From: Phoronis australis
Taxonomy: Eukaryota > Animalia > Phoronida
Direction: 5' to 3'
Length of the DNA stretch: 64,000 nucleotides
NCBI GenBank assembly: GCA_002633005.1
Contig: NMRA01000154.1
Location: 752,841 to 816,840 of the forward strand
The notes beneath the pieces are model-generated. The model was not told where the DNA came from. It made no database searches and worked only from the letters and a program-made list of their open reading frames with translations. The position numbers were made by a program, and so were the translations under genes. This document shows, piece after piece, positions 21,898 through 62,963 of this stretch. The number at the start of each line of letters is the position of its first letter. Position 1 is the stretch's first letter.

Positions 21898-22653
21898 ATG
21901 GTTCAGACTATGGACTTCAACCTTAAGAGTGGTGAGCAGTTGCTGTTCACAAACTTCTCTAATGGCTGGATTATTGAGAAGTACTCCAACACTACAGCGC
22001 CCTGTGAAAGTTGGTTATTACTGCCTGGTGAAAACATGTGGTCTAGTGGTGTTCGATTCGTTCTCTATCTAATTGCCATGATCTATTTCTTTGTTGGTAT
22101 CGCCATTGGCAGTGATATATTTATGTGTAGTATAGAAGTGATCACGAGCAAAAAGAGAACAATAGTTCGTTACGATGAGGAGCGACAAGAACCAGTAAAA
22201 AAAGAGGTCCTCATTTGGAACGAGACAGTTGCTAACTTGACACTAATGGCGCTGGGCTCAAGTGCACCAGAAATCCTCATCGCCGTCATTGAAGCTGCTA
22301 GGGAACTGCCGGCGCCATACATACCTCGTGACAGTCTGGGTGTATTTACCATTATTGGTAGTGCATCTTTTAATCTACTCATCATTACTGCCATCTGTAT
22401 TGTGAGTGTGCCATCACCAGAAGTGAAGAAGATTCGGGAAGTGGGCGTGTTCATTCTGACCTCATTCTGGTCCATCTGGGCCTACGTCTGGGTTCTGCTC
22501 GTTGTCACCGTCTTCACGCCAGGGGTTATAGACATCTGGGAGGCATGTGTTACACTTGCCTTCTTCCCTGTCCTTGTGCTCACTGCCTGGATGGTTGACA
22601 ATGGCTTCTGGATTAAAAAGGCCAAAAAGGTTGATGTGCATGAAACCAATGAG
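21898..22653 (+). CDS. SLC8A: Na+/Ca2+ exchanger (NCX/SLC8 family), first coding exon: N-terminus, TM1-TM5, alpha-1 repeat
   Basis: Acceptor ttttttcag|21862, in-frame TGA before ATG 21898. [50 protein letters not shown] and [11 protein letters not shown] match NCX1 motifs. Donor GAG|GTAAGC, phase 0. Confidence 0.96.
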
Positions 22654-36952: not shown

Positions 36953-37062
36953 GCCATGCCTCATGTGAAGATAATTAACCAGGATCACCATGGCAGTGTG
37001 GTTCATCATCCTCATGGAAGGGAGCTGATCGCACTGGAGAATGAGAAGAAACTCAAGCACAG
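36953..37062 (+). CDS. SLC8A: NCX coding exon 2 (His-rich cytosolic linker: AMPHVKIINQDHHGSVVHHPHGRELIALENEKKLKH)
   Basis: tggtttcag| acceptor, CAG|GTAAAT donor. Phase 0 to 2 fits both neighbouring exons, and the frame is open. Confidence 0.75.
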
Positions 37063-37145
37063 GTAAATTGGGCAACGGTTCATGCTTCACGTGACACACA
37101 TGCACTAACACGTGAATGGAGATGGGGCTGCTTCACATATCACAC

Positions 37146-37445
37146 CAGTGGCGGATCTAGGATATCATATGGGGGCCTAAGAATTTGTGACGGGAGCGTG
37201 GGAGCACCCAGCCTAACATATAGGGAGGCTCGGATGTGGACGACGAAAAAAAAACGGGAAACCGGTTGCGCAACTACACGCATTGTTAACTTTCCTGTCA
37301 GTCGCACGTTAATTGCCAGGGTTAGTTAATAAACTCAATTAATTTCCTCACGGTCCTGCTGTTTTATTTTTTCTGGCAGCCGTGTGTGTGCATAGGCGGA
37401 TTTGGGGGACCCTGGAGACCCGGGCGCCCCCTAAATCCACCTATG
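37146..37445. mobile_element. MITE with CAGTGGCGGAT / ATCCACCTATG termini and 5-bp TSD CACAC
   Basis: CACAC at 37141-37145 and 37446-37450. Internal hairpin at 37391-37445. Related to 53624-53775 and 63967-64000. Confidence 0.6.
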
Positions 37446-39509
37446 CACACACATGTACACTAGCACAGGAATAGAAGTGGTGTTGATTCACATATCACAC
37501 TTACGGTTACAAGTATGTGAATAGAGCTGTAGTTCCCAGTCATCTAAATGGTGATTGAGTTGCTGCTTCACGTATCACGCATACCCCCATACTGTATTCT
37601 ACATTCAAAAATATATTAAGCATTCATCGACATTGTCTACCGTAGTAGTTACTCATTTTCTCATTCAATGGATGGCTGGTTTTATGACTCTTAACACTAA
37701 AATTGAGTTTGTGCGTAGCGCCATCTATGTCTGAAAAATATTTACCTCATCAGGCCCATACAAAAAATTGATACAGAGTTTCAACGGACTTTGGGTATTT
37801 GACATCTGGTGAGTAATTCTGTAAAGACAACTGCGTGGGATTATTTCGAACTCAAGAGCTGTTCCCCATTTTTTTCAAATATTTGAAACCTTTATTTATT
37901 GTGGAGGAATATAGTAAATGAATTCCAGAAAGAGTGTGACTATAACACATTTTAAACGAGTTCTCCAAAATTATTAATTGATACATATGTACACCATTGG
38001 CAGCCACATACAATAGTTGTTTCTTAGATAGCCAAATGATAATTCTTAGCAAATAAAGTTAGATTACAGAAATAGTTGCCAGCTCAGAATGTTGTCTAAT
38101 AATTTTCAAAGCTCTGAACATTGTTGTAGCACTTTTTGTGATGTTTTGTATTTACTTTTCAAAAGCTGGTGGCCTAGAAATAAATCAATAAATATATATA
38201 TAGATTTCACAGTATGCTGAATAACTCTTATTGTCCATATGTGTTATCCATATTTGACTGCAGTTTTCTTTATCAGTGTTGTACATTGTAGTTCGCTACG
38301 TGTCATTTACCTGTCTTTGTCATAATTTTTTTTCATGTAAGGTTATTATTCATTTAATTACGTTTTATTGCGGTATCGGGTATGCTTTTAACCAGAGTAC
38401 CAGGGAGAACGGTGACTCTAAATAGCGGTTGATGTAGCGACAACCCAGTCTAAATCAATAATCAATCAAATCCTATCAATCACCAATTCTCTTTTGTAGC
38501 CATGCTAACCTCCGAAGTGACGGGCATGAAACGTAAGTATTGCCACCTGTTGTGAAAACAGCCTCACCTAACACATTGCTGTTTGATTCGATTGCAGCTA
38601 AGTTTTCTGATGTAATGTTTTATGGAGTTACGTTGACTGTGAAATCTCCACCAGATTGTTCCACCAGATCTTTGCTTTGTAAGATCCACGTATTCCATGT
38701 TTTCTGCTACTTCTGGTTGAAAGTTTTGATTGTTTTGTTGTATTCACACGACACGTTGTGTGCAATTAATGAGATGGTATTTGCCTCACCTCGCATGTTG
38801 TTTAAGTGTGGACTGACTAACGAGGTGTGCAATTTAAGTAATCGGAGTTTCTACTAATTCACTGCAGGAGGTTTCATCATCATTTTCAGTCAATTTACCA
38901 CGAATCTTTGGACAAACCATGCTATGAATACCAACCCATGCTGCATACCTGAACTAATGGGGCTTGTACTGTATAGACACCTGGGTACACAATAAACAAC
39001 TTTTTTCCTACTAACCTACTGCTGATTTGCTAATTTACCGTATCAATATGCGTGTTTACATTTGGTGCGGTCCTTTTCGTCTCACAACTTGCAAAGGGAT
39101 GCACGATCAACCTGATAAAAAGAAGTTACCAAGCAGTTACCTCTGTACCTCTGTAGAATTCAATGACCCTCCTCCCATCATCTACTTGAATCACATTAAT
39201 TATAACACCCTTACTTATGATACTTTGAGACTATGAATTATAGTCTGTATGAGAACAGGCTTACACCAGCCCTAAAGTACAGTGTGGCACTTGTGCTGCT
39301 ATATAAACATACAGTTTATGCATGATACAACTGAATTAATGAATGACGCTGAGAAATAATTTATACATGTCTGAATACAAACCACACTGCATTCTGTTTC
39401 AAACATTGAAATATTGCACACTGAGCTGATATATCCAGGTTCTGGTACAAATAATTCTTTTGCGGTTAAAAGTGTTCATTGCCGTCTCCTGTGATGAAGG
39501 TAAAAATCA

Positions 39510-40000
39510 AAAACAAATACTTACTAAGCGACATTTAGTTAATTGAGTATGGCGTTTCAAGCTCGCAGGCTTAGGCTCTTGATCACATGACTGTTCTTCC
39601 CTCCTTTGTGAAACCGGAAGTAACACCTGGTCGTAAACAGGAGGAACTTGCAGTTCCTGGTCACGGTTATGGGGGGGGGGTGTGTGCACTGCTTAATGTA
39701 AGTGACCTTTTTGATCTCATGGGAGAGCCAATGATCCTCTCTGGATGAAGCTGGTGTATTGTCCGTATTGATGGTATGGCCAGATGAAACTATAGTCACC
39801 AATAGCAGTAGTTTGTCGAGATTTTTGTGTTCTGCAAAACTGGTGCCGAGAGCAGATTTGGTTTCACCAATGAACAGGTGAGAAGGATCCTGGTGACACT
39901 GGATCTGATAAACAAGACACAACTGCTTCTCAAGTGGGGTTACGTTCTTAAGTTTAGCTGACTGTTAAGAGTGTTAATGGGTTTAAAGTAAGCGTTGGTT
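39510..40000 (-). mobile_element. Decayed Penelope-like element, GIY-YIG endonuclease region
   Basis: Minus strand reads FKPINTL..TPLEKQLCLVYQIQC..LFIGETKSALGTSFAEHK..GHTINT..REDHW..EIKKVTYIK..RDQ..VPPVYDQVL, the typical PLE C-terminal pattern, with frameshifts. Confidence 0.85.
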
Positions 40001-41197
40001 GTTATCGACTTCCTCCTACTTACGATCGGGTATTACTTCCTGAACAGTGGTGTGGTCAAATGCCTGAGCTGCAGGCTTGAAATGTCATACTCAGCTAACT
40101 AAATGTCTGCTACTAAGTAATTTTTCTCTTTTTCACAATGATACTTTTGTACACTTTAAAAATAATGTTTCTTTTAGTAACAGGCCAAAATGAAATCTTT
40201 TGTAAATTCCTTCTATGGAAGTAGCATATATATGTTATGAAAATTATTGCTTATTCATGGAAAATTATATTTGCAGAACATTTTACAATTCGTATTTGTG
40301 AAAATTGCCTGTAGTTAAATTTCAAGTCACATATGATTGAATGCATTTTGGAAGCCCAAAAATTTGGAAGCTTTGTACCAACTAATATAAAAGAAGAGAT
40401 AATATAAATTCTAATTTATCCATACTGATTTTGCTGGTGAAATGAATTCAGGTTAGGATGCCCTTCATGCTCACAATTCTGAAACATTTGAGCCCTGCAA
40501 TGGTTCACGCTTCAAATGTCTCGTTTACGTCAGCCCCTGCCACATCTGCTTTGTCAAATTTTCTTCCATCCTTATTATTACAGTTCACGCACAACATAAT
40601 TTCCTGGATGATCTGGTCAATCCTAGTATGCAACGCTAAATAACAACTTCCCCACATGTGCACTACTTTTTTGCCTACGCAGCATATTGATATTGATTAA
40701 ATCAAAAGCTCAAACTGTCCAAAAGGTGGCGCTTAACAAGGCGGAGTGCAGTGAGGTATAGTTTGGTCTCGCGAATTTCAAATATTCCAAGACACCACTT
40801 ACATTTGGCAAAATGAAACTTCCTTATAAACTGTACTCGGCCTACCATACTGACTCATATATCAAACACTTTTTCATAATTAAGTATCATATGCCAGCAG
40901 TTGTATTCTATGAACTGGTGATAGGATGTACATGGGGCTATTTGTCTTTGATGAAAAAACAGAAAAATATAATTTAACTTGTTTTAAACCATATATTGTC
41001 CTTAATTAATTAGTGAGATTTTGCGGTATGCAGTGGCAAGTCCATGTATGGAAGGGTAATAGAAATGAACAACACACAGTCAATGCATTTTGGGGTCTTG
41101 TATTATGGACCCACTCATATTTGACCCCTTGGATGTGTTCTTCGTAATGGGAAATGTGTTCCTCTGAAGCTCACAACTGATGGGGATGAGTTCTGCC

Positions 41198-41281
41198 ACC
41201 CCTTGACTACCCCTTGACTACCCCTGGACTACCCCTGGGCTACCCCTGGGCTACCCCTGGGCTACCCCTGGGCTACCCCTA
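41198..41281. repeat. 11-bp tandem repeat (CCCCTGGGCTA), about 7 copies
   Basis: Direct reading. Units grade TTGA, TGGA, TGGG along the array. Confidence 0.9.
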
Positions 41282-41356
41282 GCCTGGTTTGATAATACTG
41301 AAGGAACGATGCTTTGAATTTCTCTTAAACTTGGTATTTTAATTCTTAGAAATTGA

Positions 41357-42131
41357 ATTATAAACCTTTGTTGTTGTAATAAGCTTAGCTTTGGGTGATG
41401 TGGGACTAATTCTGTTGTTGTCTTTCTACAAACTCTACTTGTATAAGTATAATGTATTTGGTCTCTATTCTTGTCTGCCTTTATACCTTTCTCAATAAAA
41501 TCTAATCAATTCATGTTCAAATCATCTTTGATGATGCTTTTCAAACCTATTGGACACATCCTGTACCATTATATACAGTCAGTAACTGCTGATGGTGGAG
41601 GACTCCCTGGTTAACTGTTATCTGCTCAAAATCTTGTTTTAACAAATCGTCTTTGATCAACCAGTGCCTCTAAAGTGTTAAATACCACCAGTTCGTACTT
41701 CCAACACCCTTAGTCCTGTTCAAACACAGCTTACCCTGGAACANATTGTAAATCTTTGTTGTTGTAATAAGCTTAGCTTTGGGTGATGTGGGACTAATTC
41801 TGTTGTTGTCTTTCTACAAACTCTACTTGTATAAGTATGATGTATTTGGTCTCTATTCTTGTCTGCCTTTATACCTTTCTCAATAAAATCTAATCAATTC
41901 ATGTTCAAATCATCTTTGATGATGCTTTTCAAACCTATTGGACACATCCTGTACCATTATATACAGTCAGTAACTGCTGATGGTGGAGGACTCCCTGGTT
42001 AACTGTTATCTGCTCAAAATCTTGTTTTAACAAATCGTCTTTGATCAACCAGTGCCTCTAAAGTGTTAAATACCACCAGTTCGTACTTCCAACACCCTTA
42101 GTCCTGTTCAAACACAGCTTACCCTGGAACA
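41357..42131. repeat. 387-bp near-identical direct duplication around a single n (41744); probable assembly overlap
   Basis: 41357-41743 vs 41745-42131, only about 3 substitutions. Confidence 0.9.
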
Positions 42132-42823
42132 ACTTGCTCTAATGCAACTTACCCCACTTTTAAGTGGAGAGTCCACACACACACATGTCCTGATAACTTA
42201 GGGTAAGGCGGAAGTTGTCACTCATTCCCAAGTCTTATTTCGCGCTCAAAAGTATGGTGGATTTTAACACTGACTTTAACCATAGGCTAGAAGTTCATTA
42301 TATTTCCATATTCTGCATTCTCGATCTCTCTCAATTAATGGATTAACAGATTACATAACTAATGGCAACAGTGGAAAAATAATCAATTTCAATTGTGAAC
42401 GTTTTGCTCAACAGAGGATCACCATGTGAACTAGGACAATTTCTCTCTGATTTCACACTGAAATTATTGCCAATGGTTATCATTTAACAGTGGTTACGTT
42501 GCTCGAAAGTTTGTCAAATGTTGTTTTATGTCACCTGCACAGTATACCTTGAGCTAATTACTGGCCAAATTTTTCTTTATTTTTTTTGTTGAGCATTTTC
42601 ATAAAATAAAATTTCACTTGTCCACCTTATTGTGCGCTAAATATATGGGGAACAATGAGAGCAACCTAGTTACAACTTGTCTTTAATCATGGCCTGTGTA
42701 GACTTTTTCTGTTTATTAATTTTGCGTTGTTTGCTATTGTTCCAGTCATTATAAGCACCGGTTTTCATGAGTATCAGGTCTCCAATTTACTTCTAGAAAC
42801 AAAGCTCAGAATACTCTGTTATC

Positions 42824-42966
42824 CATGGGCGGCGCAGCACTGAAAAAAGTGGGGGCTAAAGCTTCCCAGCCCTACTGCGGTGCACCGTCTATAGACCATG
42901 GGAGGCGAAGCACTGAAAAAAGAGGGGCTATAGCCCCCCCCAGCCCCCTATGGTGCGCTGCCCATG
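42824..42966. mobile_element. Dimeric MITE with CATGGGCGGCGCA TIR and 5-bp TSD TTATC
   Basis: TTATC at 42819-42823 and 42967-42971. Homologous to 3056-3199. Confidence 0.75.
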
Positions 42967-45900
42967 TTATCTTGAACATTTCACTCCCATGTTTGTACAT
43001 GTCACTCTCATATCTTGACCTCATCTGACTTTCATCTTTCTGAAGGTTTTCATCTATTGTATATGTGTCTATCATTATATTTCATTTGTTATTATTTTAC
43101 CAATGTCCATTTTCCTGTCTGGAAACAGAGGTGGGAAACAGTTTATTTCTCCAAAACCTAGATATTATTTATGATTTTTAGTTAAGGAAGGCTTACGATG
43201 CTTGGTTCATGGGGCATTTGTGTACTCTTAAATGGAAACTTTTGACTGGAACAAAATTGACATAAAGAAATCACATGTGGTAAAGTCTAATAAAATAACA
43301 TTTGTTTTGGGATTATTTGGGTTATTCACTTCTGGAAGCGAAGCAATGTTATTATTGCTGTTTTGTAGTGACAGTGGGAAAACGAGCTCTACGTACGTTC
43401 CCGGCATTGGGTCGGCAACGGAACTTCTTCCTATTAACAACAGCCTCAATTCACCTGTCAGGTATTTGTTTGTCACCATGGCAACCAATAGCGCATGGTC
43501 ACTGCTCTACTCCTGTCACTCAGTTTCTTTCCTACTAAATACAGTTCGGTCTCGTCTTTCTTCATCTTGAGTTAGATTAAAGTGTCCTTGGTATTGTCTG
43601 TTACATGTCAATATCAGTGAACGTGTTTTTCTTGTATTTCGTATTTTGATGTCAGTTTTGTCTTCCACACGCATCTCCATTGCAAAGTTGGCTGCATGAC
43701 AAATCAGATCAGAAATTTATCGAATTTGACCTCTTGAACTGCTTCCTTAGTTTTAGCGGCAACTTTGAATATTGTCTTGCAACGCTTTTGTGCTTTTTGT
43801 CATGTCTTTGTCACTGTCTGCATCGTTCTTGATCTTGTCCATTCATGCGCTTGTGCTTCACTGTTCGTCTGTGTTTACACGTGTGATCATCTGCGTGATA
43901 GTCTTATGGGTTTTGTTAGTTCGTGTCAATGGTCTAACTCTTGTTCATGTTCTAACCGTTGTTATGACAACAGGTTTAATGTCATTGTTGGCTGCTCCAG
44001 CTGGTCAACCTCGGGACGCTGAATTGTTGAATTCTTGGAATATGAAAAAGCCGTCTTTTTACTTCTTTTTCTAAGTGTATAAGGGTGGTTTTTGCGTAGA
44101 CCTGCTTGTAGGACCTGCTGGATAACCAAAGTACTTGAATTATATTATATCTAACAGTGCAGTTGAAGATTTTCTTAAAAGCCAACAGTTGAGCTGACGT
44201 TACAATGACCTTGACCTTAGTGTTTCACATCTGGCAAGGGCTGCGTTCCATGTAGACGCAAGAATCTTGTGAAGGAACTTGGTGTGGTCATGTGCTGTGC
44301 GTGGCGATGATCTCTTGTAGCGTCTTTTAATTGTAATCTTACGTTTTCACAAGTCTCATGCTTCTACGAAACGCATGCCCCATTACTCTTCTGACACAAG
44401 CTCGAATGAATTTTCGTTGTGATTTTTGTGAGATTTAGCCCGGCAGTACTCTTTGGTGACTTCTGGAATCATGATTGTGTGTCGGTGCCTTGGCTGTGAT
44501 GGGGTGGCTTTGGCTTTAGTGTTAAGAATGCATGTTCTGTGTACCCCATTTGGTTCAGTCTACTTTGTTGTTACTGTTACGAAAACTTATTGTAAAATTT
44601 TGTTTGTCTCCCATGTGAGCCATTTTAATCAATTTAATATCAAAAGTGTTATAAACTATTACTAAAATGGCACAGCCTTAATAAACTTTGTTGTTCAGAA
44701 TGTGTTAGGAATTGTTTTCAATTTTTCCAACTTTTGCATGAGAGGGTGTCAAAAACTAGGACTTTCATGGTTTGAGAAAACTCGAAAAGTGACGTAAAAG
44801 GAAAACAAAATGAAAACTTAGAAAACTTTAACAGATTCTTGTGAGACTCCGTATTGTACGTTTATGTCAAACAAAATTTGACTGTGTTATGCCGTTTCTT
44901 TGCTATTGACGAACACTCTCTTTTTTGCCTAACTTCACTACAGAAGCATGGTCACGTGACCCAATTAATAGCAGATTGGAATAAAGTCAAAGTTCTGCTG
45001 GTCTTTTACCCAAAGAAAATATAGTTACACTTTTACTGAGTTCAACTCTATAGCTTTATAGATATTAAGGTGTTAATACCCATGGTTCTATAACCTTAGG
45101 ACCATCTGTTCAGACCAACTATTAATCGCGTTGAAACCATTTCTATATAGTCATAACTGTTACCCCATGCATGGTAACCGCTTTACAATTTCGTTTAGAT
45201 AAAATAATTAAAATTTCAAGAGGCAGGGTATGCAAAAATAGTAGAAATATGTAAATATGTTGGCACGTTTTCAAGGGATGCGCGAATCAATAGAAAGTAA
45301 ACACGATCAGGGTTAATAATTAGTGTGCGTTCATCAGGGACGTGTGTGTAATATCGAGTGAACAATGGGGTCTTCTGCACCGTGTTCGAATTAAAAGGAG
45401 GGTAAAGTATAGTTTTGTTAAATAAGTTTGGGTGTGCATAAATTTAGAATGCGCGAAACTGTAGAGAGGCTACTGTAGTTGTTAAGGCACTGTTCCCATA
45501 GGCTATCCCTTTTGATTCACCTCAGTTAGTTTGACTAGTTAAAACTTTAACAACTGCTGTGTTCATGCCAAGATGCAGCAGTTGTACCCTCACAGAAGGT
45601 TACAATTAAATTTAAGACCTTTTTGTCGCTGACTTAGTTTGTTGAACATTCCCTCACTTAATTTAAGTTTTGTTTATTGCAACCATAAAAAGTAATTTTG
45701 TGAACGATATGGCTGCAATGCACTGATTTTCATACAAATATTACAATTTTATTAGAATGAAACTCACTGATAACTTGAGATCCGTGCAAAACCATCTTCC
45801 TCTTATTCGGAATTTTTCCATGCATTTTTTTTAAACCACGAGTACCTTGAATAACCTGTTATGCCATGTAGAACTACTGCGACAGATGGTCTATTTTCTG

Positions 45901-46070
45901 AAAAAAATAATGTATAAAATAAATAGACTGGGGCATTTTAATGTTACCATGGAAAGGTGCATGTTTTCCATGTCCTGGCGTAGTCACATTGTCAGTTGTG
46001 GTAGATTGCATGTGCTGACCTATACTCACGTAGTGTGTCCCTCACATTTGCCTGTTTATGTTTCTTGTAG

Positions 46071-46166
46071 TGGTCAGAATAATTCTGGGTCCACCACACG
46101 CCTTGTTACAGCCGTCGACAAAGAGGATATGACTCACGACCAACAGAGGTCATTTGCTAGAGCCAG
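46071..46166 (+). CDS. SLC8A: NCX coding exon 3 (SGQNNSGSTTRLVTAVDKEDMTHDQQRSFARA)
   Basis: tttcttgtag| acceptor, CAG|GTAACG donor, 96 nt, phase 2-2. Joined to the next exon it gives QQRSFARARFRHAA, similar to NCX1 QQKSRAFYRIQATR. Confidence 0.8.
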
Positions 46167-48076
46167 GTAACGTAATTCAACGTGATGTAATAGAAGTCTG
46201 ATTTTCTGCAGGCTTATAGTTATTCTGTCGCGTGGCGTAGAAGTGTAAATGGGATGCCATAGATAACAACATCAAAATCTGTTGTAAATTTTCTTTATTT
46301 GAAAGAAAATTTCTTCTTGCCTATGGTTCTAGCTGACATTTGACTATCAATAAATTTAACATTGTTGTAAACATATGTTTCATCAGCAAAAATAGCCTTC
46401 TGTGCAAGTGATTTTCATTCAAAAACAAACTAACATTGATAAACAATGAATTGTTAAAAGCCCCATTCAGCACCTGTTTTTTGTTCTTCACTGACCGTCA
46501 CAGGTCATTGCGTGAACAAGGATTCCCCTGATGGCCACTGGTCACTGCTTCTGGACTGAAACGGTGTGCCTTCAAACTGTTAGGAGACTATGATTAATAT
46601 AGGATTTTGCTATTAAATTTCTGTTCACCATTTTCATATCGAAGATAGGGTTAATGATGTGTTACACAGTGTCCATTGCGTTTTCTACTATTGCTATTTT
46701 TTATTGCTATTTCAAAAATCATGAAGTCATTTCCTTTTCTTAGGTTGCAAAAATTGCCAACTGCTTTGATATTTGTAGTAGAATTCCAGCAGTTAACAAT
46801 TTTGATGAACTTTCTAATGTCTAGCAGTCTTGAGAAATGTAAATTGCTTAGGGATATTCTAAGTGCTGGTAGAATTTTGATTCAAAGATGATTGGAACGT
46901 GCACGGCCTCTGTGTTTTTCGGTGAAATTAGCTAAAATGTTTTTAGATTAAACTGATTCATGTTGAAGCTACTTCCGTCACAAAAGCAACCTCTCACTTT
47001 CGCCATTGTTACCGTTATCAAATTGGAACTTGGATCGAATTGGAAGTTCAGAATTGGAGACCAGAGGCCTGTTTCAGGAAAAGTGACTGGAATTAAAAAT
47101 GGACTCCACTTAAATTTTTCTTAGAAATAATTAAATTTTACTTAAGCAAAAGTGCAAAGTTTCTGAGAATATACATAACTGCTAGTTACTGCCGATATAA
47201 TTTTTAAAAATTGTTTCTTGACTGTGATGCAGTCACACTTACTTGGTTAAACCTTTTTCCAGCAATTCTGAAGAATGAGTGAAAGGCCAAATTTCTATCT
47301 TAAGTCATGAAATGGACTTCAGGCCTTACATGTTGGCCAATATCACGGCCGGTCAGTTGATCACAAGTAACAACGAACTGCTGGTTGTTTTCAAGCCCAA
47401 GTATTTTGTGCGAGCAAGGAACCATTTTTGGTCAAAATCAAAAGTTAAATCTTTTAATGATTGAACACCAGTTTATTCCCGTTTTAAGGATACTCTTTCC
47501 TCTGTTCTCTCATGTTTACTAAAGAGCAGCACGAATCTCACCCATTAGACAACAAAATAAAAGCACATTTTGTGAATTACAGCTGTGTAAGCATTACATT
47601 TCTATTCACATGAAGTATGAAACTCAACGCCTTTCATTTATGCTTGCTATTGTTTTGGTGTATCACCATTAATTACAAAAGTAAACTGTTTACTTTTTGA
47701 AAGAACTGTGCAAAAAGTTCATTTTTATTGAATAAGTTTTGACTAAATTTGTTTGTCTTGGACTTCGTTTCGTGGGGTCTTAAACTAAAATGAAGTGGGA
47801 ATAGTGTCATTCAATAATTAAAATAAACATTATTATGAACCACTGTGAATAGATTTGTGGTGTTTCTTAGAAATGCAATTTTTGTACATTTGACATGTAT
47901 GGTGTCCTAATTGTATACCCTTGTTTTTCCCCATCGTAATATTTAACCAACTAATTCATTGGTAAGATGCGAGTACAGATTTGTTTTGTGTGTCTTGATT
48001 TTTTGAAAATATATTTTATGTTATGTTTTGGCAAGTTTTTATGATTTTGCGAACTCACTATGTTTGGCTTGTATAT

Positions 48077-48228
48077 CATGAGAGATAACTGTCGTCTTAT
48101 GCCCAACAACTATAAGAAAGTTTGTTTTTCATGAGAGGTAGTAATGTCTTCATGGCCAGCAATAATAAGAAAATTTGTACATCATGAGAGGTAACTGTTG
48201 TCTTCATGCCCGGCAATAATAAAAAATT
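48077..48228. repeat. ~53-bp tandem repeat, 3 degenerate copies
   Basis: tcatgagag..aactgt.gtctt.atg.cc.gcaataataa at 48077, 48129 and 48182. Confidence 0.7.
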
Positions 48229-49117
48229 CTAAAAACGTTTTTGTGGTAAAGATTCTTCTCAAGTGCTTAAAAAGTCTCAACTAAGTCTCCTTACTTTGCT
48301 AACGTGTAGCATGTACTGAATGACAATGCTATATGAACACCATCTCCACTTGTATTTATTTATTGACAACTTGTAAATGTGAAAACAAAAAATTCTGCAA
48401 ATAGATGACCTTTTCACTTATGATGAACCTTGGGGTTTCACATAGCCCGCATCATGCTGTGTTATTCCCCAACACCACATTACGATACTTACTAGACACC
48501 GTTGAGTGATTTACAGCGGATCATTTTCAACACAAAACTTGTTCTTAAAACTATTTGGTAATTTGTATCGCATTTAATATACTTATCATCGTCAATTGTT
48601 GCGTTTCTATCGAATTTGACCAAGCAATCACAGAGACTTAAGTTAGACTTAAATTGAAACTGAGTGCAATGTTCAAATAAACACCAAAGAGTTGTTTACC
48701 GAGAGTTGCGCAGTCCAAAAGTGCTGGGAATTATGGGGGAAGCTTGGTTTTATTATTATTGAAGCATTTTCCAGCCTATAAAACTTCTTTTTTTTTCTGA
48801 ATGAGCATTTTATTTTTATCGATTCACTGAATAAAAAAGTGTCTCTCGACTACTAATACGAAGAACCTCCTCAGTGTGTTGTGTGATTCAAGTAACATTT
48901 GTGTGCTAAGATTTACACTATGTGGGTGAATGTTGACCTGCTTCCTTTCCATCCGTCATGACGTCCTCAGCCTTGTGAACTCCTGCAGGATCTTCTTGAC
49001 GTTCGGTAGTTGTGGTGCTCATTTATTCACTAGTCTTTTCAAAGATTGCTGAAGTAGTTTTGGTCAAGTGTTTCATATATCAGCGTTTAGAAGTTTATGC
49101 CTGAGCATAGGTAAAAG

Positions 49118-49848
49118 TTGTCCCTTACATATAGGGGTAGAGGGGTGTAACATGTATTGGTAGAGGGGTATCACTTACGTGTATTGGTAGAGGGTGTCCC
49201 TTACATGTATTGGTGGAGGGGTGTCCGTTACGTGTATTGTTAGAGGGGTATCCCTTACGTGTATTGGTAGAAGGTGTCACATATATTGGTAGAAGGTGTC
49301 CCTTACTTGTATTGATAGAGGGTGTCCCTCACATGTATTGGTTTGGGGTGTCCCTCACATGTATGGTAGATGGGTGTCCCTTAATGCATTGGTAGAGGGA
49401 TATCCCTTACGTGTATTGGTTGAGGGGTATCCCTTACGTGTATTGGTAGAGGGGTGTCCCTTACGTTACGTGTATTGGTAGAGAGGTGTCCGTTACGTGT
49501 ATTGGTAGAGGGTTGTCCCTTACATTATTGATAGAGGGGTGGCCCTTACACATGTATTGATAGAGGGTGTCCCATATGTGTATTGGTAGAGGGGTGTCCA
49601 TTACGTGTATTGGTAGAGGGGTGTCCCTTACATGTATTGATAGAGGGGTGTCCCTTACATGTATTGATAGAGGGTGCCCCTTATGTGTATTGGTAGAGGG
49701 GTGTCCATTACGTGTATTGGTAGAGGGGCGTCCCTTACATGTATTGGTAGAGGGGCGTCCCTTACGTGTATTAGTGGAAAGGTGTCCCTTACATAATTTT
49801 GTTGATGGAGAAGTGTCCCTTACGTACATTGGTAGAGGGGTTTACCTA
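49118..49848. repeat. 27-bp minisatellite (CCCTTACGTGTATTGGTAGAGGGGTGT), about 27 units
   Basis: Contiguous 26-27-bp units with no unique spacers. Explains the repetitive ORFs at 49210-49992. Confidence 0.95.
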
Positions 49849-52800
49849 GCATGTAAAGGGTTTCTTTACTGGCACGTGTCTGAAACTGCATGGTTTTATG
49901 CCCTTTGTCTATTTTTAGAATACTTTAATCACATGGATTATTTCATTGTAATATTTAGGGCTTGGTTTGTTAACTTTTCTAAAGAATATTAACCACTGAG
50001 GAACAACCGTAGTACGTCTACTGATGATTTTTGTATATTAGACACCGAACTTCCATGACTGTGCAGCTATGTCTCCATCTGTGAGATCTTTGTGAATTAT
50101 GACAATTGTATTCCTTTGAATGTGTGAACATATCAAAGCTTCTTTTTGACATATCTGATTACTGCTGTGCCTTGTGGTGACGATTTTATTTTTTACCTCT
50201 GTCTCTGCATTTTGGAGTTCCATTTGGGATTTTCATAAAATTTGGCTTAAATAGGCTTGACTCCATTAGGGAGATGAAATTTTCTCATTTTCAGATGGCT
50301 TCAATATATTCTGTGCCCCTAGTTCAGATCTACACGATATCCTCTCAAATTAGCAAAATCCAGGGGCCCAATCCAAAAAAGCAACTTACCTAAGACAAAT
50401 CTTAAAATTTAAGTCAATTTTAAGATAAAACTCCACTTTGTCTTAAGTCTGTTCTAGGAAAGTGATCTTAAGTTTGTCTTAAGTTTTTGATGTTTTGTCT
50501 AATATCACTAACACACCGGATGTGGAAGTTTTAAAGTTTGGAAGCGGAGACAAATCTTAGACTTTAGTCAAAAACAAACTTAAGTCAGTTTCTTGGAACA
50601 TGTCCCAAATCTACCGTAGATCATATGACCCCCCCAAAGAACAAAGTCCAGATCTATATTATGTGCCCCCTCAAATAGCAAAGACATTATTCCTTGTCAA
50701 ATTTCTAAGAAGTGAGTTTGTGGCTTGGAAGGTTTGCCATTGTTTGAGTCCACTTAGTTCTACAAGACTAAAGTTGGCTTGTCATGCACCGAGCATGGTC
50801 CCAATCCAAGCTTAGAAACTACTTCTCATGCGAGTTAGAAACAAGTTGAGATCAGTTTTCTAGAGGTGAGTAATCAAAAGTTAGTTTCATTGACAAGATG
50901 CGAGTTTAAAGCCACTTTTAAAAGTGCAAAAACTGCTGGTCAGGAAACATATCAACTGAGCAATGCACAATAGGATATAATGCTGCAGTGCTACCACAAA
51001 ACAATAACATGAGGATGTTGTGTATTACATTAGGTGAAGTCCCATCAACCTGTATCCATTATACAGATGGTGTTTCCATGTGCTGGACCAATGTTTGTGT
51101 CATCCAATAAAGTGATTAAATGAACACCATGATGTGTTATCTAAATGATTTGCAATGTTTATTAAGGGCTTTGAGTTTGTAATATTTTTGTTCCCTTGTT
51201 TCTGTTGTAGAAAGTGTATCACGCACTTAGTGTTTGCTGCTGTGGCATCTTGGTCTAACTAATTTAGTTACAGCTTTGAAAGTCACTTACCGAACTTTAG
51301 TTTAAAAGTTTGCATCTCTGTATTTTGAATATGTAATAAGTTTGTTAGCCTTCGTGTGCGTTTTAGAGCTCATGGTTTTGTAATTAAAAGTAACTGCTTT
51401 ACTATCATTTATAGTAATTGTTACTATTCTAGTTTTCATTTGCATACTTAAACATCGGATGCTTGTCACAAGTAGCCGCCATTGGTTAATTGAATGGTGT
51501 TAAAAATGATTACAGGTGACTAGATTGTCAACGGGTTTTAAATTTAATTACTACACATTAGACATGATTATCAACTGAAACCTTTAATGCAGAAAATTTT
51601 TAATGTGCTTTTTGTTCCAATGGTGGTCATTTGTGTTTATTTACGTGTCTCTAACAATATTTTGCTTTTTTTCTTTTGCATTGCCTTGTGACTCTAACAG
51701 ACTCAGGTACAAGCTACACTCTGCTTGTTGTATGGTGTGATGTTATTATAACTACAGAGGTCGCCACAGTAGCACAGCATGATGCCTGTGGCACGTCTGC
51801 AACAGAAACTTGACTGAGAAACTGCCAACTGTCAATTTTGAAACAGCAGTTTACTGATTAGCTGTTCTAAAGCACTTGAAATGCAGTTTGAAAGTTTGTT
51901 TTATCTATGGTCATAAATCCAGTGGTAGCTAAGTGGGTCTTGGGCAGTGTGCTTTTCAGAGCAGCAAAAATGTTGCAACTACATAAAGTTGATAATTTAT
52001 TTTATTAACGACTAACTTCAAAAGCCCCGATACTGAACTGTTCGCAAATTGATATCGAAGTTGTGACTGTCTTAGCTCAAGCCCTGACTTGTGACCTTGC
52101 GATAAAACAGGCCCACGATGAAATTTGTAAAATTTAAAATTTAATAAGAGTCAAGTTTGAGTTGCATTTCCTCCAGCATGCTATGTGCTTTTCACTTCCA
52201 CTAAACACTTTGTATTGTTTTATTGGAGATCACTTGGACGAATGCTATTTAAGTTAAATGTATTGGTGTTTGGACGAATTAAGAAGTCCTTACGTTACTA
52301 CTGTAAATCTAATCCTTGTCATGCTACCTGAATTCCTCAGTTGTCACCTCCTTAATGTCTTGCTAATACTTTTGAATGAAATGATACTTTTCTGTTGTGC
52401 AGAAATGACTGCCCTTTTGTCTACAGTACTTAATGTGTTACCCAGTCCGTAAACCAATTAAAACAATAGTGTTCCTGAAGATAGATTTCATTTTGCTTCA
52501 ACGATTTCCATTCAAAATCTGTTTCTAATGTTGAAGACACCAAAGTTTGGCAGTTGATTGGGTTATATGTGGCTGTATACAATTTGGATTGTTTTCTCTG
52601 AAATTTCTTGTTCTTACTGTTTTCCCTCTGTTGGCGTCTGTTGTCTCTGTCTCAGTAATTAACTAAAACATACTAATTGTGCCCAAGGCATGTGGGATGG
52701 AGATCTAATAGCTTAACAAATTAATGTTTTGCGAAAATGATGATATGTGTGTAAAATTTTCATGAGATAATTACAATTTGGACTAGTAAATTCTTAGAAT

Positions 52801-53089
52801 CATTAAATTGGTGATTTAAATTTTTTACTTCCCCATAGTTGTCGTTCCCTAGTCCATTAATGCAACATGTTTTGCCCTATGTGACCTGGTGTTGTGTCAT
52901 GCCATACCTTATGACAAAACCCTTCCCATATGACAAATCCCTTCCCATAATTCACCGTCTGTGCATTTAGATACTCGCACATTTTTTGCACATTTTGCCA
53001 CCACAGAGTTACTCGACTTAGATTTTGTGAGGCAATCTTCAAATAAATATCACTGATCTGTTGATGTAAGCTCTTTTTCTCTCTTGTAG

Positions 53090-53223
53090 ATTCCGCCATG
53101 CTGCCATCAATTCCATTCTTGGTCACAAAAAGTCTCACTCCAGGCCTATAACACCCAAACCCAAAATGGTTGGCATAGTGGACCAAGTTCGTGCCAACTC
53201 ACAGTTGAATCAGATGAATGAAG
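53090..53223 (+). CDS. SLC8A: NCX coding exon 4 (RFRHAAINSILGHKKSHSRPITPKPKMVGIVDQVRANSQLNQMNE)
   Basis: ctttttctctcttgtag| acceptor, AAG|GTAAAG donor, phase 2 to 1, open frame. Confidence 0.85.
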
Positions 53224-53623
53224 GTAAAGAATTGTACTTCAAATGAATTAATGACAGTGTTTCATTTTTATGTGCCTATGTAAACATGTACATATCATAT
53301 GGGCGTCGAGTGTTTGCTGCTATATCTCCTAAGCCGCTAGCACGATCTTTATGAGATTTGGGGGATGTGTTTCTGTGAAGCTGACGACAGATACGACGAC
53401 AAGTTTTGGACAGATCCAGTCACTGCTGTACTCCTTAGAAGTAATTCTCTTTTTACCATTTGCGTCTGTATTTTTGGGGTTGCTTGTCGGATTTTCATAA
53501 AATTTCATAAACAAGTATGGGGGAGTTGGCTAGCTCTTCCCACCTGCAAACGGGTTTGACAAATTTTGTAGTACCTAATGCGTATCACCACCATAGGAAG
53601 CATACTGTTTGCGATGCAGTCGT

Positions 53624-53775
53624 CAGTGGCGGATTTTGAGGGGGGCCAAGTGGGCTATGCTCCCCTAAAATTCTCCGAGATTCCATTTGGCAGTTCGGGG
53701 GTGCCATTGTCTGACGGGCAACATCCCGGCAAACACTTGGCCCTGACCCCCACCCAAAATCTGGATCCATTACTG
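53624..53775. mobile_element. MITE CAGTGGCGGAT...GGATCCATTACTG with 5-bp TSD GTCGT
   Basis: GTCGT at 53619-53623 and 53776-53780. Imperfect TIR. Confidence 0.7.
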
Positions 53776-54137
53776 GTCGTTGGAACATTTCAGTGCTTTG
53801 TATTCTTGTTAAATATCTGGTGATTTAACTGAACGAGTGCAAATGTCAAACTTTTTTTTGACAAAACACTTGGACAATTTATGTAAACTTTAAATATATC
53901 AGCAAATCTATGCAGTATGACAAATACTGTACTGGAAAATTACAAAATTTAATTCTATAGGGTATTACAATTTTGGGCTTGATACTCAATCTGTCTACGA
54001 CTGTCAAGACTAAGTCCTTGGCTTATTCTAGTCTTCTAGTCAACACTACAATGCAGCTCCGTATTCAGTTGGATCTAACTATCCAAGTTAAAGTCCAGTG
54101 GGTACTGTGACATTTTGTGTTATATTGTTCATTACAG

Positions 54138-54237
54138 AGGATATGTGCGGCAAGTTTACCTTTGCTGCACCAAGCTATTCTGTTCTGGAGAGTGCTGGCA
54201 CGCTGGAAGTGGATGTGTTGTTTCACCGCAAGAAAAT
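54138..54237 (+). CDS. SLC8A: NCX coding exon 5: Calx-beta CBD1 strands A-B ([33 protein letters not shown])
   Basis: F.F....Y.V.E..G...V.V Calx-beta motif. ttacag| acceptor, AT|GTGAGT donor, phase 1 to 2. Confidence 0.92.
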
Positions 54238-54664: not shown

Positions 54665-54689
54665 ATCCAAGTCCACTTTAAAAGTTGCT
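54665..54689 (+). CDS. SLC8A: NCX 25-nt microexon (ISKSTLKVA)
   Basis: ttttgtttttcag| acceptor and GCT|GTGAGT donor. It converts phase 2 to phase 0, exactly what is needed to join 54237 to 55269. Confidence 0.82.
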
Positions 54690-55268
54690 GTGAGTAGTCT
54701 TTAAGTTCTAATTGTTGAAAAGACAAGTAATTTTCTCTAGTTTAGAATACCGTAGTTGCACTGGCTAAAAAATACTCGATTGAGACACTGTATATATGTT
54801 GCTGCTCTTGAACGATTTTTTTAATTCAAATTTTTACTTCCAATGTTTTACAGCTTGATGAACCCAGGATTAAGTAATTGTGTTCAGACCAACTAAATCC
54901 GGTTAATATACGTTTTTCACAGTTACTACCCTTATTTAATTTATAACCGACAGTCACAAAACTGTTAAAACCCAAGTTCCTGGTTATAGCATCCTTTGTT
55001 ATGTGGAGAGCATTAATTATTGCTTTTGCATTTCTGCTTAATATACTGTTGAGTTCAGGTTATAACGTTACAAGTGCTTTCTAAACCCCCTCACAGAGGT
55101 GTAGAACGGAGTGTTGTAACCCTTCGGTGGTATGGGACATTTGTAAAAAACAAAATTTTTAGTCTCCTAAAACAACAGTACATTACTGTGTCCTGTGGTA
55201 TGGAGTTAAGGTATGCTCGGGGTAACAATAGAAGTTATTTTACCCCCAAGTTATTTTCCTTTTCTCAG

Positions 55269-55448
55269 AATGGTGGAACTGCCATTGCCAACAACAACAC
55301 TGACGAAAAGGAAACCACTCTAACAGAAGTTACACCTATGGACAGGGAACTGGAAGACATTATCACAGGAGTTGTCTCAGTTGATTTTGAGACACGCGAA
55401 GGAACTGCTAAGATGGACAAAGATTTCAAATTTGCTCAAGGAAAACTG
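55269..55448 (+). CDS. SLC8A: NCX exon: CBD1 insertion plus strands C-D (NGGTAIANNNTDEKE...GVVSVDFETREGTAKMDKDFKFAQGKL)
   Basis: V.VDF.T.EGTA....DF....G.L Calx-beta motif. ttttctcag| acceptor, CTG|GTAAGC donor, phase 0-0. Confidence 0.93.
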
Positions 55449-55819: not shown

Positions 55820-57000
55820 CTTATGTGCCACCTCCCCCCCAGGCTTTATATTGCCGTCATAAGCTCTGTTTGGGCATCTGGTGTAGGCTGTTGTATCTCC
55901 TAAATTCCTTGCCCGATTTTCATGAGATTCAGTAGAGTCGACGTGTTCCTTTGAAGCTAACTGCAGATGAGTTTCGGACTGAACCGATTGCTGCTGTTAC
56001 CCCTTAGTAGCAGATTTGGTTTTTTAACTTTGCTTCTGTTTCTACCAAGTTCCTTGACAGCTTTTTTCAAAAAATGGCAAACAGGTTTCTACTGAAACAC
56101 CAGCAGCTTTCGAATGCATTTGACGATTTTCAACCCCTGTCGGTCATCTTAATTTATTTTTAGTCTGCTTCTCTATTTGCCAAATCCCTTGAAGGCCATG
56201 ATTGGGAAGTTTGGAAGATATATTCTTATTGAGGAGAGCACTTCTGACATTGATTTTTCGACAGGTATTGCTACTGTGGTGTCCCCTAGTGGCAATTTTT
56301 CTTTTTGCCTTGTTTTAGTAGTGCCTCAGTATCTACTAAGTTTGTTGATGGACCCGAGTATTGTGCTGTTTCCTTGTGGAAATTATGATTTTCTTTACAT
56401 CTGCCTCAGTATTTACCAACTTCCTTCTATGGAACTTGGTGTAATAGAGCATATGTGCTCCTACACTCCTTATTCTGAAAATTGTATCTCGTATAATGGT
56501 TCCAGATTTTAGTTAATATATGTCTTATACAAGGATGGTAGTATGTTCCCATTTTTGGATGGATATAAAGTATTCTGTGCTCCTTGTGACCAATTTTTTA
56601 TTACTTTTACCTGCTTCTGTGGCATTTGCTTCTATATAGTCGCCAAAGTGCTTGAAGGATCATTTTGAAAATTGACGGGTTTGTTCCTAGTGAGAAGACT
56701 GACTTTGATATTCAGATGGTTCTATCTATTGTGGCACTCTGTAGGTGCATGTATTTCATCCGCGGCTATATTTCCTTTATCCTTTGTGGGATGTCTGTGG
56801 CAAGTGTTTCCCAGGAATGTGAGAACAACTTTACTTTTGGACATATCTGTGCCCCCTAGTGGCAGTTTAATTTTTTACCACGGCCTGTTTTATTTGACAG
56901 ATTTTCAGGAATTACAGAGACAACAACACCTTTTAAACTGTGGAGAGATTTGATTATTCTGTGCCACCTAGTGGCCATTTTTAGATTTGTGCATCAATTA
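55820..57000 (+). mobile_element. HINE/DINE-1-like repeat with degenerate internal subunits
   Basis: Recurrent ttcatgaRatt / cccctagtggcaatttt / ccacctagtggccatttt motifs shared with 20785-21430 and 60878-62020. Confidence 0.5.
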
Positions 57001-57565: not shown

Positions 57566-57728
57566 ATTTTCCACGAGGAAGAATTCTGTAAAACCATCTC
57601 CATACCCATAGTGGCTGATCACCAGTGGGAGGGAGACAATGAGTTTTACGTTATTTTGAAAAACCCACAAGGTGACTCGGGCCTTGGGGACCCCAGTGTT
57701 ACACGCGTCCTGATTATTGATGATGACG
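57566..57728 (+). CDS. SLC8A: NCX alternative exon A, CBD1 strands D'-G (IFHEEEFCKTISIPIVADHQWEGDNEFYVILKNPQGDSGLGDPSVTRVLIIDDD)
   Basis: tgttttag| acceptor, G|GTAGGT donor, 163 nt, phase 0 to 1. Calx-beta F...E..K.I.I.I..D...E.DE.F and LG.PS...V.I.DDD motifs. Confidence 0.9.
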
Positions 57729-58000
57729 GTAGGTGCAGACATGGTTTGAAAAGATCGCTTGATCGGCTTGGGTATGAGCAACTTCAAATTTAGCAAGCCA
57801 AGTGATTTTTATCAAAATAACTTTTTAGCTGCCGTAGTTGTGTTGAGCACCAATTGGTGCATTATACTGGCAGTGAGACTTGTAAAACAGATGGACAGAA
57901 ATTTTATTTTTTTTTTAAGTTGCTCAGGCTTGCTGATTAAGTGACTTGTTTGTTATGAGTTTGTGTGTGTTTTCAAAGATACCACATTTGTTCATTTTAG

Positions 58001-58163
58001 GTATTTGCAGAGCACGAGTATAGGAAGACAATTTCGGTTCCGATTATCAACGATTTGAATTTCCATAATAATGTTGAGTTCTACGTTATATTAAAAAATC
58101 CCGATGGGGACGCGGGTATTGGCGACCCAAGCATCACCCGTTGCACAATAGTTGATGATGATG
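58001..58163 (+). CDS. SLC8A: NCX alternative exon B, paralogue of exon A (VFAEHEYRKTISVPIINDLNFHNNVEFYVILKNPDGDAGIGDPSITRCTIVDDD)
   Basis: ttcattttag| acceptor, G|GTAAGA donor, 163 nt, phase 0 to 1. 32/54 aa identical to exon A, no stops. Confidence 0.9.
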
Positions 58164-60877: not shown

Positions 60878-62020
60878 TTTATGCGCCTACGATATATGGC
60901 GTCATCCCCATCCATCCGTCCATAAGGCGTCCACTTCTGTATCTTCAATACCCCTTCATGGATTTTGTGAAATTTTGCAGACATGCTTGTGTCATGAATG
61001 AGACAACACAAATGAATTGTTTTGACAGATCTGACCACCGCTGTTCCTCCTAATGGCCATTTCATTTTTTTATGTTTGTCTCAGTCTGTAAATTAAAGAT
61101 CTTTCCTTGACGAATTTCCATCTGTGACGGATTCAACATAGCACCACTTAGTGGCCATTTTACTGTGGCACCCCGTAGTGGCTGTTTTTGCTAAGACCCC
61201 TGCAAGATATTTGTTAAATTTGGCAAGTGTATTTCTATGAACGGGACAATGGATAACGGCAACTTTCGGACATAATTGCAGCAACAGTTGTACTTCATCC
61301 CTGGTGGTAATTTTAGTTTTTCACTGTCTTTTGTATATTCAAAATTCCTTGATTAATTTTCATGAAATTTGGCAATAAGTTTACTTTTTTGGATGAATTT
61401 GCGCAAATAGTGTGCCACCTACTAGCCATTTTTATTATTTTTTTCAAATTTCATTTTGGTGTCTGCCTTCTATCTCCAAACCACTAAGAATTGATAATGA
61501 AAATTTATTTGGTAATTGTGTTTCTTCTGGAAAGTTCCTGGCAAAACATGATGTTTGGACAGACTTACTGATGTGGTGCCCTCTATTGACAATTTTGTTG
61601 TTTTTGCCTCAGTGGTTCCATATCTACCATGTACCTCAATAGATAGTCTTGAAATTTATACGTGGTTTTATTGAGGAGAATATAAGTGATGCGAATTTTG
61701 TGTCAAATTTAACTACTGTGGAATCTCCTACAGGCAATGTTTGTCTTTGCGTTTGCCTGAATATCAAGTTCTATGATGCATGTTCATGAAATTTGGCTAA
61801 TAAGTTACTATCATGAACACATCACAAACCCTGTTGCAGACGGATTTGACCTACATTGCCCCCCTACCGGCCTTTTTATTGTTTTTTGTCTGTTCTTTGT
61901 TGTCCTCCCCATAATCTTCCAAACTTTGTGGAGAATCGTGATGAAAATTGACAAGTGTGTTCCTATTAAGGAAAGCATTGCTGACTTCTTTTGCACCCTA
62001 TAGGGGTTATTGTTTTAAAC
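60878..62020 (+). mobile_element. HINE/DINE-1/Pearl-like repeat with degenerate internal subunits
   Basis: Begins tttatgcgcc...ccatccatccgtcc, then repeated (t)catgaaatttggc and ccacYtagtggccatttt units. Confidence 0.55.
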
Positions 62021-62839: not shown

Positions 62840-62963
62840 AACCTGGGGAGTTCACTTTTGAAAAATCTCATTTGTACGCTGACCCCAGCAATGGGGTCGC
62901 TACGGCAACTGTGATGCGGCAGAAAGGCTGTGATGGGACTGTTACTATAGAGTTCTCAACAAT
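62840..62963 (+). CDS. SLC8A: NCX exon: start of Calx-beta CBD2 (EPGEFTFEKSHLYADPSNGVATATVMRQKGCDGTVTIEFST); gene continues beyond the window
   Basis: ctttttcag| acceptor in phase 1, matching exon A or B. AT|GTAAGT donor. Aligns with NCX1 HAGIFTFEEPVTHVSESIGIMEVKVLRTSGARGNVIVPYKT. Confidence 0.92.

Follow-up and report, generated by a model that had tools for sequence, protein, structure and literature searches.

The closest described relatives of the arrangement reported here are the splice switches of other NCX genes. Vertebrate NCX1 and NCX3 (SLC8A1 and SLC8A3) carry a mutually exclusive exon A and exon B in CBD2 (PMC9820601, PMC4494069), a pair that is common to jawed vertebrates and has been characterised functionally. 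In Drosophila, CALX1.1 and CALX1.2 differ by five residues of the FG loop of CBD2 and keep the ligands of CBD1 intact, and the available text of PMC9820601 describes no duplicated CBD1 exon for this gene. In papers on NCX, CBD1 figures as a fixed sensor and tuning by splicing is attributed entirely to CBD2 (PMC11237548, PMC9820601), and NCX splicing is stated to be confined to CBD2 (PMC11237548). Tandem mutually exclusive exons in general have equal length and phase, encode homologous peptides, end within a fold and often have a length indivisible by three (PMC5740500; further examples in PMC9741552 and PMC8373072). Among the human clusters, 60% have such a length and few are covered by joining reads (PMC5740500).

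The present work deals with two tandem exons, A (57566..57728) and B (58001..58163), on the + strand of an NCX gene of Phoronis australis; positions refer to the window, i.e., the whole stretch of 64,000 nucleotides that was analysed. The two exons are interpreted as old, maintained tandem copies that would be spliced either/or into two proteins of equal length, with a predicted difference in Ca2+ binding by CBD1, and a probability of about 0.75 is given to this reading. The pair resembles the vertebrate NCX1/NCX3 exons in that both would be homologous either/or exons of a Calx-beta domain, changing acidic ligand positions of the EF loop. Unlike them, the Phoronis swap is located in CBD1, comprises 54 aa with strands E-F-G and the DDD, belongs to another subfamily and seems restricted to one lineage; the two pairs are separate events. 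Drosophila CALX is likewise an invertebrate NCX; it has a CBD2 that binds no Ca2+ and a regulation modified by splicing (PMC9820601), two features predicted here as well. The general properties of tandem mutually exclusive exons are found here as well; however, the exon sets of PMC5740500 were judged by junction reads, whereas the Phoronis pair is known from sequence, and an orthologous counterpart of it is not known.

As a mechanism, tandem either/or exons are familiar and common, and the new element is likely to be their location in CBD1 of an NCX. The preliminary description knew of no earlier account, and none was encountered in the accessible full-text literature on NCX splicing, NCX subfamilies and tandem exons, a scope outside which subscription journals and bioRxiv supplements lie. 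If true, the upkeep of two either/or exons in CBD1 would be both an exception to the fixed sensor and a convergence on the EF loop. Two natural variants in one protein background would also allow to test whether a neglected invertebrate subfamily is regulated by Ca2+. The meaning of the pair is bounded by its occurrence in one lineage and in an uncharacterised paralogue.

The Gene and its Transcription

The gene is read on the + strand. Its first large coding exon (21907..22653, start codon inferred) encodes the N-terminal membrane half with the alpha-1 repeat (Pfam Na_Ca_ex, E 8.8e-22), is 57-69% identical to invertebrate NCX homologues and contains GSSAPE, a motif of the NCX alpha-1 repeat (PMC4232491). 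Where the cytoplasmic loop begins, a small coding exon (36953..37062) was inferred from tblastn and profile matches, with its splice sites read from the sequence, and is followed by 16 kb (37063-53089) without a confident exon match; further small exons may lie between it and 53090. At the place of 37063-53089, orthologues carry many variable, alternatively spliced loop exons. The loop exon before CBD1 (53090..53223) was recognised by a profile match and an RNA joint to 54138, where the exon for strands A-B of CBD1 begins (54138..54237; tblastn, profile and RNA joint), with a Glu at the position of NCX1 E385. An exon of 25 nt (54665..54689), absent from the preliminary description, was detected through an RNA joint; it falls within a long loop inserted in CBD1 and keeps the frame between its neighbours. 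Exon U (55269..55448; profile match, acceptor from the RNA joint) encodes strands C-D of CBD1 and ends in phase 0. Downstream of A and B, exon D (62840..62963) encodes the linker between CBD1 and CBD2, with the G503 equivalent, and the first strands of CBD2, with the R532 equivalent. By Pfam and profile matches the gene has two tandem Calx-beta domains, CBD1 being whole and CBD2 begun within the window. On the 3' side of exon D the gene extends past the window end, and the alpha-2 repeat and C-terminal membrane half found in orthologues would lie there.

The RNA data comprised three raw-read runs and one contig run, chosen by species label, the raw-read runs being covered to 18-19% each. The joint 53223-54138 was covered by 9 reads from 3 runs and the joint 54689-55269 by 5 reads from 2 of 3 runs, so that the gene is transcribed and spliced as far as exon U. 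Within this exon the coverage fades; few reads fall on U and D, and none on A or B in the four runs, at a depth of about 0-4. Reads from elsewhere in the genome pile onto an intronic repeat family (56253-56991 and 61017-61877), which has a short common core in 7-8 copies; the core presumably resembles a CTCF-type motif.

Assignment to an Invertebrate NCX Subfamily

As judged from the homologue listing and the accessions of published trees, the gene is a member of an invertebrate NCX subfamily lost in vertebrates and not an orthologue of NCX1 or CALX. The 120 best listed homologues cover animals as distant as placozoans, corals, amphioxus and a tunicate, and the named matches among them are all invertebrate proteins of the subfamily, none being from a vertebrate or an insect. 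Identity between NCX1 and the orthologue model amounts to 29-30%. Metazoan NCX comprise three subfamilies, one of which was kept by vertebrates (PMC6987452). The clusters matched by the window gene include XP_011444293, which is OysterNCX1 in the published tree of PMC6209159, and XP_022780412, which is Spi2 in that of PMC6987452, the clade of Spi2 being taken from the text order of the tree in the PDF. By these accessions, the window gene belongs outside the subfamily kept by vertebrates, in the third clade of PMC6987452, and probably groups with the coral NCXB of PMC6209159, a link that is circumstantial.

A FastTree tree (400 columns, 50 sequences) placed the gene among lophotrochozoans, where its neighbours are a bryozoan (local support 0.94) and a brachiopod (0.47). 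A search of 50%-cluster representatives was dominated by multi-Calx-beta proteins and was left out of further use. The function of NCXB is called unclear (PMC6209159), and many divergent invertebrate NCX-like genes were predicted to be devoid of NCX function (PMC2408596). In their available parts, PMC6987452 and PMC6209159 mention no splicing of CBD1 and state no function for the subfamily.

Two Copies of a CBD1 Exon

Exons A and B have 163 nt apiece, are preceded by AG and followed by GT, lead from phase 0 to phase 1 and have open frames. They are separated by an intron of 272 nt (57729..58000, + strand), the best branch-point-like site of which is at 57933. Their peptides are identical at 32 of 54 aa (22 differences). 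The coordinates, lengths, spacing, splice sites, phases, open frames and peptide identity put forward in the preliminary description were all re-derived. Of the 32 identical residues, 22 are specified by different codons; by codon position the copies agree at 34/54, 45/54 and 15/54, and the DNA is 58% identical with random third positions; the flanks of the two exons are unalignable to each other. Both match the Pfam Calx-beta domain (34.9 bits for A and 27.5 for B, curated cut-off 27) and score alike with the subfamily profile (74.3 and 76.6 bits), so that their resemblance is not due to chance. A scan of the window with this profile detected no third copy, and A/B is the sole exon repeated in the window. 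A perfect 14-bp palindrome (57847-57860), which may be a chance occurrence, is located in the middle of the intron between A and B.

Each copy encodes the end of strand D followed by strands E-F-G and a terminal DDD. The EF loop is ADHQWEGDN in A, equivalent to NCX1 446-454, and NDLNFHNNV in B; the DDD of A corresponds to NCX1 498-500. Several comparisons bear out the earlier placement of the pair in CBD1. When an abalone orthologue was aligned with human NCX1, the exon segment ended at D498-D500 and was followed by the CBD1-CBD2 linker, and over the EF loop both exons align without gaps to CBD1 of NCX1 and CALX. In a model of the abalone orthologue, which serves as a stand-in for the spliced CBD1-A and CBD1-B (mean pLDDT 75; 85-90 over the exon segment), the exon begins within strand D and then carries E, F and G. 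The model superposes on NCX1 and, over one domain, on CALX CBD1 at 1.4-1.6 A. Since the exon starts inside strand D and provides strands E-F-G, CBD1 needs exactly one copy. Among PDB entries, the stretch that fits each of the two exons best, with weak scores, is 3us9 residues 200-232, which is the A/B segment of NCX1 CBD2.

Predicted Consequences for Ca2+ Binding

In CBD1 of NCX1, the ligands of Ca2 are E385 and E451, those of Ca3 are E385, D447, I449, E451, D498 and D500, and those of Ca4 are E385, D446, D447, D499 and D500 (PMC3386913; assignments drawn also from PMC9820601), E451 being a ligand of up to three Ca2+ ions (PMC3386913, PMC9820601). The window gene keeps the equivalents of E385, the acidic residue 421, D447 and the DDD. 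The four-site ligand set of NCX1 is incomplete, position 454 being replaced in both copies and positions 446 and 451 varied: exon A has Ala446, Trp450, Glu451 and Asn454 and exon B has Asn446, Phe450, His451 and Val454 (NCX1 numbering). As aligned with NCX1, A and B have each lost a different ligand (446 vs 451). Eight of the 22 differences between the copies fall within the nine positions of the EF loop (NCX1 446-454); at least eight differences in this loop occurred in 12 of 396 equally distant between-species pairs, which are not independent of each other.

Across orthologues, E385 is found in 43 of 50 sequences, and an acidic residue at the D421 position as well as R532 in 50 of 50; the G503 and R532 equivalents of the interdomain tether are both encoded by exon D. 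CBD2 of the subfamily is devoid of an acidic EF loop, which probably leaves CBD1 as the sole Ca2+ site of the exchanger, and the role of "primary Ca2+ sensor" is carried over to CBD1 by homology. With CBD2 in this condition, the A/B swap would be the main means by which the gene tunes its Ca2+ regulation. The A form would contain the full Ca3 set (E385, D447, E451, D498 and D500 equivalents) and offer no side chain at 446 for Ca4, and the B form would keep the Asn446 of the subfamily and have His in place of E451. By homology to NCX1, the prediction leans slightly towards a stronger Ca2+ response of the A form than of the B form. In NCX1 mutants, changes of E451 are said to have affected regulation little and changes of D446 to have reduced affinity, results that would reverse the predicted direction. 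Given either/or splicing, the odds of a measurable change in Ca2+ sensing, as predicted from NCX1, are roughly even. That one gene produces a Ca2+-regulated and a Ca2+-insensitive exchanger by exchanging the ligand loop of its sole functional Ca2+ sensor, so that the vertebrate A/B switch would have been re-invented on the corresponding structural element of the other Calx-beta domain, in an ancient subfamily whose CBD2 is unable to bind Ca2+, is a tentative proposal.

One alternative retains the either/or exons and denies the tuning: CBD1 of this subfamily would have little or no affinity for Ca2+, and the loops would differ because of relaxed constraint or for a reason such as the domain interface, a partner, or Mg2+ or pH. 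It opposes the functional step alone, its splicing part overlapping the preferred explanation. Among the 42 bilaterians of the subfamily, Asn446 is found in 38, Asp447 in 40, Glu451 in 36 and Glu454 in none, and a residue other than Glu is fixed at 451 in the only copy in 6 of them and also in corals. The frequent Asn446, the absent Glu454 and the fixed changes at 451 suggest that loop changes may be tolerated. The lack of E454 and the prevalence of Asn over D446 across the subfamily speak for this alternative, as do the loss of loop ligands from the single copy of sea cucumber, mussel, octopus and corals and the state of position 450, a core residue of the NCX1 interface (PMC3386913), which A fills with Trp and B with Phe. 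The conservation of E385, acidic 421, R532, D447, E451 and the DDD, i.e., the Ca3-Ca4 and tethering network of NCX1, argues against it, and an absence of Ca2+ tuning is regarded as possible though doubtful.

Distribution, Age and Maintenance of the Copies

The second copy is absent from all 16 animal loci among the metagenome-contig matches listed, 9 of which, with 6 distinct exon sequences among them, reach across the two flanking exons; the 163-nt boundaries of the single exon were the same in 8 of 8 animal loci checked. Among 302 homologous proteins, 265 have one copy and none has two, a count that must be read with the fact that gene models can miss a second copy. A residue-by-residue comparison of the isoform sets of 22 species gave no alternative version of the segment, and ten further clusters contained no alternative segment and only variants of a few residues, as for alleles or sister species. 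In protein searches, which are word-limited and weak, exon B alone had no match and exon A alone had two, both from single-copy sea cucumber proteins. A candidate alternative upstream exon of Watersipora turned out to be a 7-residue insertion and not a CBD1 swap. Judging from the loci and proteins compared, the single exon is ancestral. The absence of the second copy from the 16 listed loci and the 302 proteins makes the duplication look lineage-specific, confined to the lineage of the window, in line with the independent origin proposed earlier.

The comparison of A with B gave a pS of 0.90 (saturated) and a pN of 0.29 (Fisher p 2e-10), pN being lower than pS in 2000 of 2000 bootstraps. The saturation of silent sites and the unalignable flanks indicate that the duplication is old and that both copies have been held under purifying selection, and the conserved residues and simulations of neutral drift lend further weight to this view, which the preliminary description had also taken. 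Of the 21 positions conserved in at least 80% of 49 orthologues, 1 deviates in A and 0 deviate in B, while variable positions account for 21 of the 22 differences between the copies (p 1e-5). In a tree of the 54-residue exon, A was placed with Tubulanus (local support 0.68) and B with Lineus (0.80). Such support does not suffice for dating the duplication, and the two nemerteans share changes absent from A and B.

The simulations bear on the alternative of a single constitutive copy, its neighbour having been silenced so recently that it persists as an undecayed relic. Under neutral drift of 0.02 substitutions per site, with an assumed indel rate, a copy was still this intact in 44% (A) or 25% (B) of cases, and by 0.1 substitutions per site in less than 1% of 3000, so that among losses of one copy only a very recent one is compatible with the data. 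A relic would agree with the lack of RNA reads on either copy, with the relatives, which all manage with a single copy, and with the 25-44% of cases in which a copy dead for 0.02 substitutions per site would look intact. However, both copies were constrained long enough for silent sites to become saturated, both have kept their splice sites and 20-21 of the 21 conserved residues, and survival in this state falls under 1% by 0.1 substitutions per site. Recent silencing of one copy is accordingly considered unlikely.

Reading Frame and Splice Routes

The spliced products U-A-D and U-B-D both read open. At the annotated sites, U-A-B-D reaches a stop 7 codons into B, and U-D, with neither copy, a stop 24 codons into D. 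Stops located far upstream of later junctions lead to nonsense-mediated decay as a general rule, and decay is expected for both products. The claim that the inclusion of both copies or of neither shifts the frame thus stands for the annotated sites and fails for a cryptic acceptor inside B, where an exon start at 58011 (10 nt in) would fuse the two copies in frame, for a product longer by 51 residues.

A constitutive A with B as an optional in-frame addition through 58011, which would lengthen the linker by 51 residues and uncouple the domains, is very unlikely. The A-B join at this site is open and in frame, and in NCX1 a longer linker results in lower Ca2+ affinity and faster release (PMC9820601). 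This reading is opposed by the acceptor of B itself, which is at the ancestral position and keeps the invariant Phe2 that a start at 58011 would remove, and by the retention in B of the full set of 21 conserved core residues, whose packing depends on strands A-D. In addition, AGs at 11-19 nt from the exon start were present in 9 of 9 orthologous exons of single-copy loci, so the acceptor at 58011 may be incidental. An assembly artefact, two haplotypes or a fragment of a duplicated gene can practically be dismissed in view of the 58% DNA identity, the random third positions, the unrelated flanks and the repetition of a single exon within the window.

For the preferred reading, either/or splicing of A and B in the mRNA is likely, as deduced from the layout of the exons and their frames. 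A steric block was rejected as the mechanism of exclusion, the intron of 272 nt being too long and the branch-like site lying about 205 nt from the donor of A. Competing RNA pairing in the 400 nt beside U and D did not exceed that of shuffled sequences in any of 6 segment pairs (12 shuffles per pair), and other long-intron sequence was scanned for repeats. Recursive splicing at the AG-GT start of B was discarded because the single exon of one single-copy animal locus (L002) begins likewise. With steric block and competing pairing, which not every pair of this kind employs, not found, the remaining mechanism is one in which regulated choice of splice sites would select one copy and nonsense-mediated decay would clear the products of double inclusion and double skipping.

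Other Variants within the Subfamily

Several additional variants were noticed among the homologues. Losses of CBD1 ligands are fixed in the single exon of P0105 (Octopus), P0054 and P0121 (sea cucumbers), P0076 (Mytilus) and corals, and the octopus exon has lost even the terminal DDD; Ca2+ regulation may have been dropped repeatedly in the subfamily. In bivalves, two alternative whole first coding exons, encoding the alpha-1 half, are found on a shared remainder (P0089 vs P0031 in Argopecten, P0095 vs P0040 in Crassostrea virginica), and the Pinctada model P0001 is longer and has nearly double the score, as if it contained both versions. The Montipora isoform pairs P0207 vs P0087 and P0215 vs P0212 differ by one residue of alpha-2, Ser vs Arg or Cys, which in the two species sits at an apparent exon junction. 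Coral isoforms of 685 aa (P0208, P0210, P0229 and P0232), of which both Montipora ones are devoid of the first membrane half, resemble in this respect the five-helix AyNCXB (PMC6209159), in which the first membrane half is also missing.
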